64,000 nucleotides of DNA from Eledone cirrhosa (lineage: Eukaryota). Where the stretch lies: positions 332,878,001 to 332,942,000 of the forward strand of contig OZ024743.1 in assembly GCA_964016885.1 (NCBI GenBank), written 5' to 3'. The notes below the pieces were generated by a model, which ran no database searches, was not told the origin of the DNA, and was given only the letters and a program-made list of their open reading frames with translations. A program made the position numbers and the translations under genes. Below, piece after piece: positions 9,736-62,141 of this stretch; within the stretch, counting starts at the first letter, position 1; each line of letters opens with the position of its first letter.

Positions 9736-10013
9736 ATGAAAGCATGTAGACAGTAGATGAGCAAAGTTAACCACTGATGCAAGATCAATCAACTGCATAC
9801 TTGTTATCTTATTGGACATGTGAGCTATGGCTGGTGTCACTAAAATAAATTTGGTGACTTTTCTCTCGCGTCTGCCTCGCGTGTGTATGTATGTATGTAT
9901 ATATATATATATATAAATGAAGTAATTCCGTCGGAAAAGTCCAGGAAAAAAGAGTGCTCTATGTAGGTAACAGAGCTTAATAGTTATGTAATAAACAACA
10001 TAAGGCAATTATT

Positions 10014-10069
10014 CCATTTACCAGTGGTTTCTTAAAAGGAAAAAATTTTGCTTTCAATCATCAGAATGA
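10014..10069 (-). ncRNA. Type I hammerhead ribozyme motif with intact core
   Basis: Minus strand reads tcatt-CTGATGA-ttgaaag...cttttaa-GAAAC-cactg-GTA-aatgg; stems I, II and III all pair. Confidence 0.75.
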
Positions 10070-10082
10070 GAAAATAGGATTT

Positions 10083-10142
10083 TTTCATTCTGATGATTGA
10101 AAGCAAAGTTTTTTGCTTTTAAGAAACCACTGGAAAATGGAA
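10083..10142 (+). ncRNA. Inverted copy of the same hammerhead with U16.1 mutated (GTA to GAA)
   Basis: tttcatt-CTGATGA-ttgaaagcaaa..tttgcttttaa-GAAAC-cactg-GAA-aatggaa; forms the right arm of the palindrome 9998-10156. Confidence 0.65.
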
Positions 10143-10160
10143 TAATTGCCTTATGTATAT

Positions 10161-10316
10161 ATCATCATCATCATCATCAGGTTTAGCGTCCGTGTTCCAC
10201 GCTTGCATGGGTTTGGACGGGGGTTTTCCCACTTGAGGCAAGAGTGGTTGTCTTGCTCGCATAGAACTGTCTGGCGGGTTTTCTACAGTTGGATGCCCTT
10301 CCTAACACCAACCACA
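10161..10316 (-). mobile_element. Short RTE-B 3'UTR fragment
   Basis: (CAT)n followed by 'cgtccgtgttccacgcttgcatgggtttggacgggg', as at 49045. Confidence 0.8.
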
Positions 10317-10342
10317 TATATATATATATACACACACACAAT

Positions 10343-10690
10343 GGAGAGACATGGCTTAGTGGTTAGAGCATTGGCTTTGCAATCGAAAGGTTGTGAGTTC
10401 AATTCTCGGACCGGGTGATGTGTTGTTTCCTTGAGCAAGACACTTTATTTCACATTGCTCCAGTTTACTCAGCTGTAGAAATGAGATGATAGGGACTGGG
10501 GTCCATATCATTCCACTGCAAAGTGGTCGTGGAGGCGCCACGGCAAAAAAGCACCCAGCACTCACTGTAAATGAGGTTGGCGTTAGGAAGGGCATCCAGC
10601 TGTAGAAATCAAGCCAGAATCAGTTCCCGTCCCAGCCTTGCAAGCAGGGAAAAGCGGACGTAAAATGAAATGATGAAATGATGATGATGA
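10343..10690 (+). mobile_element. Full-length tRNA-derived CORE-type SINE with RTE-A 3' tail
   Basis: A and B boxes, CORE-like segment, and tail 'ccttgcaagcagggaaaagcggacgtaaaatga' identical to the RTE-A 3' end (31918-31950). Confidence 0.9.
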
Positions 10691-11880
10691 TACACACATT
10701 CTTTAAAAGTACAAAACAGTACTATGACTGCAACACTCTAAAAATTCAAGTCTTTATAATGCAAATTAAAGTTTTTAGTTTATTGCAAATTTTCACAATA
10801 ATCTGTCCAGTAGTAAAGATATGATAAACATTTAAATTTGCAAACCACATTAATAAGATATTCTTGAAAAGTACCAAACAGCTCTATGGCTGCATCACTT
10901 TAACAATTCAAGTCTTTATTACTGCAAATTTTCATAATTTATCCAGGTGGAATCAAGAGACAAGACCTCATTTGCTTGTGAGGTGGAACTCATCAAATCA
11001 GACCAAAGAAATTGTATAAGTTTTTCCATTGCTGATGCTATCTATTGGTTGCAACTCCAGAATTAGCAAACCACATGAACCCACAGTAAAAAGACATTCT
11101 TGAAAACTACAAAACATCATTATGCCTGCATCACTTTAAAAATATAAGTCTTATACTGCAAATTTTCACAATGATCTGTCCAGTATTAAAGATAGTGTAA
11201 ACATTTGAATTAAGAAACCCATTTTAAGATATTCTCTGCTAAATTATTAAAGAATGTTAAGAGTTAAATAGAAGCAGCAAATAAGTATCTCCAGACTCTC
11301 TGATGAGAATGATCATTTAAAATAGAAAACAGCATGAGCCAGTGAAAATGTTTTATGTGTCAGACTGAATGTGAAGTATTCTTCATCGAGAATGAAAAGA
11401 AAACAGATGAAAGAGCTTGATACGGTTTATAAGAGAGAATATCTACTACTGCAGCTAACAGATGGTTGAGATTAACAGATGAGGAACAACAACAACAACA
11501 ATAATTGTATGATAAGGAAAAGCAAGTATGGTGAAGAAGTACACTTCAACAAAGATAAAGGGAAACAATTTAGTATCTGGTGAAACTATTGCAATCTATA
11601 GACCTAATCCAAAGAACAAAGTAATAAAGGTAATGAAAACTTGTTAGAGAGATTTCTACAGACAGGTGGATAGGTGAGAAAGATTTCAATACTTCAGTAC
11701 ATATTCCCAAGACTAATCATCATCACTGTTTAACTGCTTTCGTTCAAGCTTGCATAAGTTGTCACATCAGGAGCTTAGTCAAGTTAAGTGACCATGTCTT
11801 TCTCATGTTAATAAGAAAATCTCAGTCCCTGCCAATTTTAATAAAAAGTTAATGAATATTATATGTATATATATGTATAT

Positions 11881-59032: not shown

Positions 59033-59372
59033 ATGGCTTAGTGGTTAGAGCATTGGCCTTGCAATCGAAAGGTTGTGAGTTCAATTCTCAGACCGGGTGA
59101 TGTGTTGTTTCCTTGAGCAAGGCACTTTATTTCACATTGCTCCAGTTTACTCAGCTGTAGAAATGAGATGATAGGGACTGGGGTCCCTATCATTCCACTG
59201 AAAAGTGGTCGTGGAGGTGCCACGGCAAAAAAGCACCCAGCACTCACTGTAAATGAGGTTGGTGTTAGGAAGGGCATCCAGCTGTAGAAATCAAGCCAGC
59301 ATCAGTTCCCGTCCTACCCTTGCAAGCAGGGAAAAAGCGGACGTAAAATGAAATGAATGAATGAAATGAATG
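59033..59372 (+). mobile_element. CORE-type SINE
   Basis: A and B boxes, CORE-like segment, RTE-A tail. Confidence 0.9.
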
Positions 59373-59524
59373 TATGTATATATATATATATATATATATA
59401 TGTATATATATATATATATATATATGTATATATATATATATATATATATATGTATATATATATATATATATATATGTATATATATATATATATATATATA
59501 TATGTATATATATATATATGTATA

Positions 59525-59865
59525 TCATCATTTCATCATTTCATTTTACGTCCACTTTTTTCCCTGCTTGCAAGGGTGGGACGGGAACTGATTCTGGCAT
59601 GATTTCTACAGCTGGATGCCCTTCCTAACACCAACCTCATTTACAGTGAGTGCTGGGTGCTTTTTTGCCGTGGCACCTCCACGACCACTTTGCAGTGGAA
59701 TGATAGAGACCCCAGTCCCTATCATCTCATTTCTACAGCTGAGTAAACTGGAGCAATGTGAAATAAAGTCTCTTGCTCAAGGAAACAACACATCACCCGG
59801 TCTGAGAATTGAACTCACAACCTTTCGATTGCAAGGCCAATGCTCTAACCACTAAGCCATATGCC
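59525..59865 (-). mobile_element. CORE-type SINE, inverted relative to 59033-59372
   Basis: Near-perfect reverse complement of the neighbouring copy. Confidence 0.9.
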
Positions 59866-59986
59866 TCCATATATATATATATATATATATATGTATATAT
59901 ATATATATATATATATATGTATATATATATATATATATATATATGTGTATATATATATATGTATATATATATATATATATATATAT

Positions 59987-60595
59987 GGTCAGGTCACCAG
60001 TTGGTGCTACTGGTAACATGTATCCCAGTACAACCTGTCTCATGGTCGGGTTGTTGGCGACTAAACTGGCAACCCCACCAAGGTTTCTTGGTGAGGAGGG
60101 TGACTTTGGACATCCTGCAGGACTAAAAACAAAACCTGTCAAAGGGCAAAGGAGCTCTTAAGAGTCAATGGCCATCCAAAATCACCAGGAGAGATGACCC
60201 CTTAGCCTTTGTCAAGGCAGAATTCTAGGAGAAGGAAAACTCTGATATAACACCTGCAACCCTGATGGTATCCAATGATGTTGACTTGTTCTTCTTTTTG
60301 GTAAATATCATCTTGGTTAAGAGAGTGGGACTGGCTTTGTGCAGTGCCTTTGCTCACTATAAAAGCTTCACGGCACAGGCATTGCTTTATATCTGGAGAT
60401 CTCTCTGCCCTTGTCGTCACATGGTACTATGGGCCCAGCACTATGTGTCAGTAATTGTCACAAGTGTAGTGTTTGTACCAGAGTTTTCAAGTCGCTGGCT
60501 GGAATAAAAAGTCACACTCGTTCAGCGCATCGGTAGGGGTTCTCCTACATGGATATAAAGTAGTGGCCGTACTCGAAAACGAGTTGGCAGCCACC
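59987..60595 (+). mobile_element. Putative bipartite non-autonomous RTE derivative (5' module plus 3' end with C2H2 finger)
   Basis: RTE-type 5' motif 'ctaggagaaggaaaactctgat'. 60456-60536 encodes CHKCSVCTRVFKSLAGIKSHTRSAHR*, a C-terminal C2H2 finger of RTE/BovB type. Hairpin 'actcgaaaacgagt' precedes the microsatellite. Confidence 0.55.
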
Positions 60596-61296
60596 ATATG
60601 TATGTGTATGTATGTATGTGTGTATGTATGTACTTGTATGTGTATATGTATACATGTGTGTATATAGATATATGTATATGTGTGTATGTGTCTGTATGTG
60701 TTTATGTGTACATATATGTATGTATATATATATATATATGTATATGTGTGTGTGTGTATGCCTCTCTCTATATATATATGTATGTGTGTATGTGTGTGTG
60801 CATGTATGTGTGAACGGAGGTATATATACGAACATATGTATGTGTGTGTGTGTGCGTGTATGGGTATATATGTATATTTAGTTATGTATCTTTATGTGTG
60901 TATATGTATGTATATGTATGTATATATATATATATATACACCCATGTGGAGGTATGAGTACATATTCGTGTGTGTACGTATGTGTATATGTGTTTTTATG
61001 TCTTTATATGTTTTTGTGGATGTATGTGTACATGGGGTGTGATTGATGGTGTGTGCCTATATATTCCTACATATGCCCGTGTGTGTATGTACGTATATGC
61101 GCACATGAACAAAGGACTAATTTTGGGATGGGCGTAGAAAAATTCTTCAGAAAAAAATAATTGTTTACAAACTTGGCAGGTGCGATTTGCCTGTGACCAT
61201 TCTCAACACAAAGGAATCCCCTGAATAAAGGAATTTTTCGAGAATGACCGGGGCAGGCCGCACTTGCTACATTTCTCCCCACCCAACCCTACTCAC

Positions 61297-61510
61297 CGTC
61301 TCAACTCATTACTGCTATTAACACTTTTTCAACACACCTACACCCATACACTTATTAAAAAGGGGGAGAAAAAACCCCCCACCACACCACAGACATGTTA
61401 AATCCCTATATATAGAACAACACACCACATACACATCAGTTTGACAAGCGCACCTCAGCGTGAAAGGTCGTTCTAAAAACGAAACAATACCTCCTACGTT
61501 AACCAAGAAC
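61297..61510 (-). other. Candidate non-coding exon 1 / promoter-proximal region of the GANAB-like gene
   Basis: Consensus donor G|GTGAGT at 61297/61296-61291 in unique, relatively CpG-containing sequence. The ATG exon at 2284 has an acceptor, so an upstream exon is needed. Confidence 0.35.
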
Positions 61511-61888
61511 TCCGAAGACCTAACTTAATTTATAAAATAATTTTTTTTAAGGAAAAAAAATTTTTTTTCTAATCCGGAAAAAAATTCTTTTTGGATTTTG
61601 TGAAGAAAATAAATTTGTTGAAAGCACAAGTGAAGCCATTTTTTCTTCCCCCCTGTCTTAATATAACTAACTGTACCAAGGATTACACACATTTTCCAAT
61701 ATATATATATATATATATATATATACATATATATATATATATACATATATATTTATATATATACATATATATACATATATATATATATATACATATATAT
61801 ACATATATATATATATATACATATATATTTATATATATACATATATATACATATATATATATATATACATATATATACATATATATAT

Positions 61889-62141
61889 GTAGGAGGTGAG
61901 TATTATTGTAGTACAATAAAGCAATGCAGATATCGGATAAGAAGCACTCTACAGTTTGTGGGACTGGAGTATGCATAATATAAGATCAAAAGATGGTTAA
62001 AGGAGTTCAATATATTTTATTATGCGCATTTCAAAAACAAACATCATCAAACAATAATATTTGTGTTTTCATCAGATAAAACAGGAGAACATGATATGAA
62101 GGCTAAAAAAACACTTGTTGATAGTGCAGTTTTAAATCAAC
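61889..62141 (-). mobile_element. ~250-bp hammerhead-bearing non-coding island between (AT)n tracts
   Basis: Unique sequence bounded on both sides by microsatellite; contains the motif at 62014-62082. Confidence 0.7.
62014..62082 (-). ncRNA. Minimal type I hammerhead ribozyme; predicted cleavage between 62021 and 62020
   Basis: gttttat-CTGATGA-aaacacaaatattatt..gatgatgtttgttttt-GAAA-TGCGCA-TA-ataaaat. Stem I is 7 bp, stem II long, stem III the palindrome ATGCGCAT. Confidence 0.8.

Follow-up and report, generated by a model that had tools for sequence, protein, structure and literature searches.

Four hammerhead elements in an AT-rich window

We analyzed a 64,000-nucleotide stretch of the 3.0 Gb genome of Eledone cirrhosa (assembly GCA_964016885.1, contig OZ024743.1, positions 332,878,001–332,942,000), hereafter the window, in which (AT)n runs make up ~31% of the sequence and four small elements each harbor a type I hammerhead ribozyme: E1 (9916–10156), E2 (12740–13400), E3 (22483–23330), and E4 (61889–62141; all coordinates count from the first base of the window). 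A first-pass annotation of the same DNA had described four unrelated hammerhead mini-elements; its positions prove correct within a few bases, and its picture of hammerheads linked to Penelope-like elements (PLEs) and lodged in (AT)n tracts stands. Labels of the type L111 denote genome copies retrieved for comparison, and A and B denote two recurrent 3′ ends characterized below.

E1 and E3 are two-armed, inverted insertions with one core per strand, a feature overlooked in the first-pass annotation. The long arm of E1 (9916–10075, minus strand), a 5′-truncated end of a Hydra-type PLE as judged from the comparisons below, extends to the long terminus B, which adjoins (AT)n, and contains a hammerhead (10014–10069, minus strand) with a GUA triplet and predicted cleavage after 10019. 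The inverted short arm (10076–10156, plus strand) ends 18 nt short of terminus A, and its hammerhead (10085–10140, plus strand) has lost the cleavage triplet, GAA replacing GUA; an inverted repeat at 93% identity covers 9998–10156. In E3, a left arm of ~1.4 copies of a 310-bp unit (22483–22908, minus strand; hammerhead 22683–22641) stops at terminus B, and a right arm of ~1.35 units (22911–23330, plus strand) stops at terminus A, with a hammerhead (23165–23207, plus strand) of GUA triplet and predicted cleavage after 23201. If read through, E1 and E3 are predicted to form hairpins of 88 and 400 pairs, respectively. E2 is a single plus-strand arm comprising 1.28 copies of a 525-bp non-coding tandem unit, with a terminal direct repeat (12741–12894 and 13257–13410) and a hammerhead (13174–13249, plus strand) with a GUU triplet and predicted cleavage after 13244. 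E4, by the same comparisons the 5′-truncated end of a second Hydra-type PLE, is a single minus-strand arm running to terminus B, whose hammerhead (62014–62082, minus strand) has an AUA triplet and predicted cleavage after 62021.

The claim that all four are bounded by (AT)n holds for E2, E3, and E4 and has to be narrowed for E1, whose right flank consists of ~6–7 nt of AT followed by a repeat resembling a short interspersed nuclear element (SINE). (AT)n lies on either side of E2 (12557–12740 on the left, and a 7.2-kb (AT)n-type tract, 13388–20585, directly to the right) and at both the 3′ end (61699–61888) and the 5′ end (62142–63998) of E4. E2 and E4 carry one core each and, because no window copy has two cores in tandem, all four copies are probably inert products. 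Li et al. (10.64898/2026.07.22.740005) reserve ‘active’ for retrozymes with at least two consecutive hammerhead units; the window copies of E2 and E3 have one core per arm, and at least two consecutive units are present at other E2 and E3 loci.

Structure and conservation of the hammerhead cores

Five type I cores are complete and retain an intact NUH triplet: one on the minus strand of E1, one on the plus strand of E2, one on each strand of E3, and one on the minus strand of E4. The core motifs and palindromes previously reported were recovered: CUGANGA, GAAA, and NUH are joined by three stems in all four elements, the stem III palindromes of E2, E3, and E4 are perfect, and no match of >15 nt is shared by the four. 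Stem III of E1 is an odd-length palindrome, ACCA-C-UGGU, with an unpaired central C, and stem III self-duplexes are predicted at −7.5 to −10.8 kcal/mol. Stem II of E2 is flanked by an additional C and A, and its loop carries a 6-nt deletion in the window copy.

Cores were located with two self-written descriptors, each of which missed one family and which together recovered all five (the first E1, E3 twice, and E4; the second E1, E2, and E3 twice). The second descriptor yielded 4 real matches versus 0 in 50 locally shuffled windows. The motif CTGANGA was counted 34 times across the window versus 14.7 expected, 6 of the 34 lying inside E1–E4. Folding energies of the monomers are no better than those of shuffles (z −1.0 to +1.4, four intact cores). 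Rfam returned a weak HH9 match for E3 (20.5 bits versus a gathering score of 52) and no hammerhead match for E1, E2, or E4, the gathering score being reached by no element; across the whole window, no hammerhead appears among the 150 of 339 Rfam matches listed, which are microRNA-like matches on AT repeats. A window-wide scan for the U3-A8 core variant gave no match, and a reading of E1 as a plus-strand core without helix II was rejected, since the intact E1 core sits on the minus strand.

The cores are conserved among copies, including subfamilies 70–80% identical. In stem II of E2, 2 of 13 pairs are changed on both sides (10 hand-picked, related sequences out of 23 distinct ones spanning subfamilies), with a shuffle comparison of 0/500 for cells and 446/500 for pairs; E1 and E3 sequences are too uniform for covariation in their stems. 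The same layouts are tabulated for Hydra-clade hammerheads by Craig et al. (2021, PMC8557442), among them that of E2, with one additional base flanking stem II on either side, and, for Hydra-1_oBim, a stem III with a 1-nt loop as in E1. We conclude that the four cores are real type I hammerheads, with predicted self-cleavage.

E1 and E4 as ends of Penelope-like elements

The first-pass annotation had named constant linkage to a Penelope open reading frame (ORF) as grounds for reclassifying the elements as ordinary fragments of Penelope termini, and this largely applies to E1 and E4. For E4, 7 of 20 loci were extended, picked for continuing 5′ of the query, and four of the seven (L111, L113, L114, and L115) contain sense reverse transcriptase (RT) or GIY-YIG coding sequence upstream. 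L111 holds an unbroken 821-codon frame that stops 1.1 kb before E4, and its 3′ end is 92.7% identical to the window copy. For E1, 10 of 30 loci were extended, picked for long common upstream DNA; seven of them are linked to a second Penelope ORF family, and at L177 an intact 711-aa frame lies just downstream of an E1 segment that is 100% identical to the window’s E1 over 109 nt. A hammerhead segment is found on both sides of the ORF for E4 at L114, and just upstream of the ORF at L114, L177, and L182.

In both families the ORF is a single frame encoding RT and then a C-terminal GIY-YIG domain. The two proteins are 39% identical and share the motifs RW[K/T] (with K in the E1 family and T in the E4 family), DKT, CxCx5C, CxxC, and CxH, by which, rather than by an RT tree, we provisionally assign both families to the Hydra clade. 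Pfam gave no match for the E4-family protein, and its 27 homologues, at 31–42% identity, have no informative name, the sole one with a named source being from Argonauta. As noted before, no Penelope coding sequence was found in the window itself. The 5′ lengths of E1 copies are scattered from tens of bases to >1.3 kb. Both families fall outside the definition of a retrozyme as a short non-coding tandem unit independent of an ORF. Judged by sequence continuity, E1 and E4 are 5′-truncated ends, or pseudo-long terminal repeats (pLTRs), of two autonomous PLEs; because longer copies continue into a Penelope ORF, they would have been made in cis.

In 12 of 30 E4 matches (L304–L333), the 5′ ends pile up at a 6-nt palindrome ~60 nt upstream of the core, often in both arms and at 62141 in the window. 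This pile-up may mark the point where transcripts begin, reflect microhomology to (AT)n, or stem from a short sub-family that amplifies itself. A full-length E4 beginning at this hot spot was rejected, as the upstream pLTR of L114 extends further. The 411 bp upstream of E1 in L078 were likewise rejected as part of the element: they belong to an unrelated repeat (L078:1050–1460, at least 411 bp, 97–99% identical among copies, some in inverted pairs ~2 kb apart), possibly a DNA transposon end. Near the elements examined here lie fragments whose GIY-YIG type differs and which belong to other Penelope-like clades (L176:5302–7151, L122:4883–7094, and L115:2094–2961).

E2 and E3 as non-coding tandem units

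The 525-bp unit of E2 and the 310-bp unit of E3 have 35% GC and one type I hammerhead each. Neither contains an ATG frame of more than 32 codons, the longest having 30 codons in the 310-bp and 32 in the 525-bp unit. At the 19 E3 loci examined, which lie on several contigs, arrays reach ~12 units per arm, and 15 of the 19 consist of a minus-strand array followed back to back by a plus-strand array. E2 copies mostly comprise 0.5–2.3 units per arm, with one run of ~14; their 5′ ends fall inside the unit, and subfamilies are 70–80% identical. Single-armed E2 copies (18 rows from 50 loci) show no run into shared non-unit DNA, besides three that share a duplicated flank. At L050, a Penelope fragment lies ~1.1 kb from E2, beyond an AT tract. 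A search for a partner with a foreign homologue retrieved one young family only, described below, without real similarity to E2 or E3: the 40 matches listed, of 46, were all short or low-complexity. We classify E2 and E3 as retrozymes without long terminal repeats (non-LTR retrozymes), likely inserted by a Penelope-type enzyme. The earlier proposal of non-autonomous elements mobilized in trans thus survives for E2 and E3, as non-coding retrozyme units, and not for E1 and E4, which are continuous with Penelope ORFs.

Two fixed ends and one haplotype per insertion

In each family, copies stop at one of two fixed 3′ ends, A or B. Both lie downstream of the site of predicted cleavage and adjoin (AT)n. 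The distances of A and B past this site are 39 and 103 nt in E1, ~46 and 134 nt in E4, 60 and 178 nt in E2, and ~139 and 165 nt in E3, and B lies ~115 nt (E1) or ~75 nt (E4) ahead of the ORF start. Two-armed insertions combine one A with one B end in 15/15 cases for E3, 8/8 for E4, 18/20 for E1, and 7/10 for E2, in a tally of top-hit loci chosen partly for reaching B and with two E4 ends slightly short of B. (AT)4 is found at the 3′ end of 26/30 E1 and 26/30 E4 matches and at 25/30 E2 and 34/34 E3 ends, compared with 13–15% of flank positions drawn at random and 30% of positions in the window; this test begins 6 nt inside ends that are themselves AT-like, and the E1 and E4 samples, taken in genome order, include some duplicates or two arms of one insertion. 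A target-site duplication of ~15 bp is readable at one independent site, an E1 insertion outside a long AT tract (L293/L294, repeated as L297/L298).

Among 142 full E3 units (window plus 19 loci), units of one locus differ by 0.21 bases, units of opposite arms by 0.12, and units of different loci by 1.32, a grouping for which 0 of 2000 permutations were as low. Five haplotypes were distinguished; they follow the locus, and each array carries one of them in both arms, apart from a single mixed array. For E2, divergence between arms is 3.1% within a locus (17 pairs) versus 7.9% between loci (442 pairs), the E2 and E3 locus sets both being top hits biased toward young copies. The low within-locus difference in E3 and E2 indicates that both arms of an insertion derive from one RNA haplotype. 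Collectively, this common footprint speaks for a Penelope enzyme as the inserting agent, with circular RNA as its likely template.

A third, very young Hydra-type family

A third Hydra-type PLE family, represented by L205 (G000:C2:51278759–51283870) and L184–L213, has a 784-codon frame, free of stops in 58 of 63 scored copies. It forms full-length tandems with a period of 3.53 kb, up to four in a row (C1:91474419–91487157 and C1:437200453–437213157), and obeys the same A + B end rule with an 80-nt stagger. Its hammerhead is of the U3-A8 core variant and has a long helix III, for which reason it may work as a monomer. Nesting is seen at L220 (G000:C1:22620139–22623160) and L049, where one E2 end is separated from an E3 end by a short AT run and a second E2 end adjoins terminus A of this young family; such nested ends suggest that each insertion leaves a target for the next.

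Proposed mechanism and alternative explanations

We hold it highly probable that E1 and E4 are truncated ends of coding, Hydra-motif Penelope elements and that E2 and E3 are non-coding hammerhead units inserted by the same kind of enzyme. In the proposed mechanism, a GIY-YIG endonuclease would cut (TA)n with a stagger, and each DNA end would prime reverse transcription at one of the two fixed, AT-like RNA sites A and B. One surviving cDNA would leave a single arm, as in E2 and E4 here, and two cDNAs joined at their truncated 5′ ends would yield a back-to-back insertion, as in E1 and E3. The template would be a circle arising from hammerhead cleavage of a tandem transcript, acting as a dimer via the palindromic stem III, and subsequent ligation. 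E1 and E4 would arise in cis, their template being full-length element RNA, and E2 and E3 would depend on a putative partner enzyme acting in trans.

A hammerhead-made RNA circle is the template toward which we cautiously lean, because A and B lie 39–178 nt past the cleavage site and arms traverse that site, running through it for up to ~12 units in E3. As arms start past the cleavage site and cross it repeatedly, a cleaved linear monomer is ruled out as template. A circle and an uncleaved multimer could each template such arms, between which sequence by itself does not discriminate. We favor the circle because cores are conserved and because, without one, uncleaved transcripts of 14 kb would be required for the tandems of the 3.5-kb family.

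Several points weigh against the proposed mechanism, besides the AT-like ends and the bias toward young E2 and E3 copies given above. A cruder regular-expression tally over all loci found A + B in 47 of 61 cases; in the other 14, the printed flank mostly still reads as element sequence, and at least one insertion, L119, is apparently a true A + A. L109 has two haplotypes at one site. Changes in the stems of E4 are one-sided only (9 types in 21 of 23 sequences) and within the shuffle range. Eight of nine retrozyme dimers failed to cleave (Li, Clavereau and Pollet 2026, 10.64898/2026.07.22.740005), and in vitro cleavage by the PLE hammerheads of metazoans is poor (PMC4209133). No sequence link was detected between E2 or E3 and the three ORF families compared. 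A preference for (TA)n and the leaving of tails are also traits of Naiad elements, and the partner may therefore be other than Hydra.

The alternative that survives best, possible though in our estimate doubtful, keeps enzyme and target and replaces the circle by an uncleaved multi-unit transcript of an existing array, the hammerhead being a passenger or serving another step. If donor arrays are homogeneous, it accounts equally well for ends past the cleavage site and for one haplotype per array; it also accords with cleavage being weak or absent in many tested cases, with the E4 5′ pile-up (12/30), which could mark the start of a linear transcript, and with the idea raised by Craig et al. (PMC8557442) that hammerheads merely parasitize PLEs. 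It requires, however, that transcripts containing as many as 12 cores stay uncleaved, and in the young family, with its tandems of four units, that they reach 14 kb; it also sits poorly with cores kept across subfamilies 70–80% identical, among which E2 shows two-sided, possibly compensatory changes in stem II.

Alternatively, E2 and E3 could be pLTR debris of autonomous families yet to be found, later expanded into tandem arrays by unequal crossing-over. Two of the four elements did prove to be pLTRs, 24 of 57 Xenopus retrozyme families resemble known transposable elements, nearly all of them PLE termini (Li et al.), an E3 array is duplicated locally at L101, and our comparison covered three ORF families only. 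We nonetheless regard debris as improbable: the 5′ ends of E2 lie inside the unit, E3 arrays at 19 loci on several contigs stop at the same two sites in (AT)n, and in E3 both inverted arms comprise several units of a single haplotype, an outcome not easily reached by local tandem expansion. The view of the first-pass annotation, that all four are non-autonomous mini-elements mobilized in trans, is more improbable still; most E1 and E4 matches are indeed short, and the recurrent 5′ end of E4 would allow a short sub-family to amplify on its own, but longer copies are continuous with intact ORFs and the scattered 5′ lengths of E1 are those of ordinary truncation. Chance matches in AT-rich hairpin DNA can be dismissed despite the unmet Rfam gathering scores and monomer folds not superior to shuffles, given 4 real matches versus 0 in 50 shuffled windows, the position of the cores in pLTRs, their conservation among copies, and a layout equal to that of published Hydra hammerheads.

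Returning to the circle-based mechanism, its extension to Hydra-type PLEs and retrozymes alike, with a staggered (TA)n cut, two reverse transcriptases, family-specific sites, and one hammerhead-made circle, is in our view evenly poised between right and wrong. If true, a single mechanism would account for both the Penelope tail and the inverted pLTR, and retrozyme arrays would arise whole as single insertions instead of growing as satellites.

Genomic abundance of hammerhead families

Copies were counted as exact matches to 22–26-nt core patterns, for which reversed controls gave 0 matches. This yielded 3,998 matches for E1, 2,376 for E2 (one subfamily), 8,372 for E3, and 21,952 for E4; the diverse, multi-copy set of hammerhead elements suspected earlier is thus borne out by thousands of exact core matches in each of four unrelated families. 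Rfam gathering scores miss these 36,698 matches, a point that bears on annotation. Simple arithmetic on these counts gives ~0.8 core per 64 kb for the four families combined. Flanks retrieved with the copies contain at least six further stem III types, and further hammerhead families occur at L032, L092, L100, L070, L165, L173, L075, and L179, often nested in the same AT tracts. Given this density and the further types, several cores in one AT-rich window are unremarkable in this genome.

Other repeats in the window

Two apparently intact long interspersed nuclear elements (LINEs) lie in the window. The first (23682–27877) has a 395-codon frame with a poly-Q tract followed by a 1045-codon endonuclease-RT frame, as labelled by eye; the second (41339–46583), which we take to resemble Tx1/L1, has frames of 494 and 1153 codons. 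Local duplications at 98–100% identity, with long AT tracts between them, were found at 28883–31946/36991–40058, 20586–21504/34126–35044, and 49039–56409. They contain SINE-like repeats and elements that are presumably RTE-like, and may reflect recent tandem duplication or an assembly artefact.

Comparison with known systems

Hydra-clade hammerheads, the preference for (TA)n, and the idea that PLEs mobilize animal retrozymes are already published. Almost all families of the Hydra clade, where the octopus family Hydra-1_Obim is listed, insert in (TA)n, and their hammerheads have been published (Craig et al. 2021, PMC8557442). The E1 and E4 families share with this clade a single ORF of RT and C-terminal GIY-YIG with the same five motifs and a pLTR on both sides of the ORF (L114, L182, and L177). 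As in that clade, the pLTR of these families contains a hammerhead, insertion is into (TA)n, and copies show 5′ truncation, an inverted 5′ copy, and a one-sided tail. They differ in tail length, which is 30–40 bp in the published description versus 64 and ~88 nt here, and in size: Hydra-clade elements are generally <3 kb, whereas the E4 family measures ~3.8 kb and the E1 family is longer, with long 3′ regions of 1.1 kb in E4 and of 1.8–3.4 kb of low-complexity sequence in E1.

The PLE hammerheads of Cervera and de la Peña (2014, PMC4209133) likewise have a short palindromic helix III suiting dimers, their families vary within a genome, and most motifs are dispersed as truncated PLEs; pairs on opposite strands 100–700 bp apart correspond to the arrangement in E1 and E3. 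That paper proposes a circle and more-than-unit reverse transcription, in its accessible portion without end-site or haplotype evidence of the kind given here, and the circle route is also proposed in Cervera and de la Peña (2020, PMC7229834).

E2 and E3 resemble metazoan non-LTR retrozymes (PMC7229834; 10.64898/2026.07.22.740005) in their non-coding tandem units with one type I hammerhead each, present as monomers to multimers in thousands of copies. PLEs have been proposed as mobilizers in both sources; Li et al. (10.64898/2026.07.22.740005) argue for a PLE origin of retrozymes and suggest birth by unequal crossing-over. Circular RNA and cleavage have been shown for the retrozymes of coral, mussel, and axolotl, whereas E2 and E3 are known here from their sequences. 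Unlike E2 and E3, the retrozymes in the accessible part of PMC7229834 are described without back-to-back arms, two fixed ends, or (TA)n flanks, the words ‘inverted’ and ‘microsatellite’ having 0 occurrences in that paper, and these terms are not used for retrozyme insertions in the corresponding part of the Li et al. preprint. We found no description of two-armed, fixed-end retrozyme arrays in the open-access literature, subscription journals and Repbase lying outside this search. Within that scope, the architecture of E2 and E3 is a retrozyme variant without a counterpart.

The origin of tandem and inverted structures and of tails is named as an open task by Craig et al. (PMC8557442), and retrozyme mobilization as future work by Li et al. 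(10.64898/2026.07.22.740005). In E. cirrhosa, coding and non-coding families of one genome obey the same two-site end rule, an end pattern that makes the proposed copying of circular RNA testable, and for a transposition assay, a young intact family could supply the enzyme and a 99%-uniform 310-nt retrozyme the substrate.

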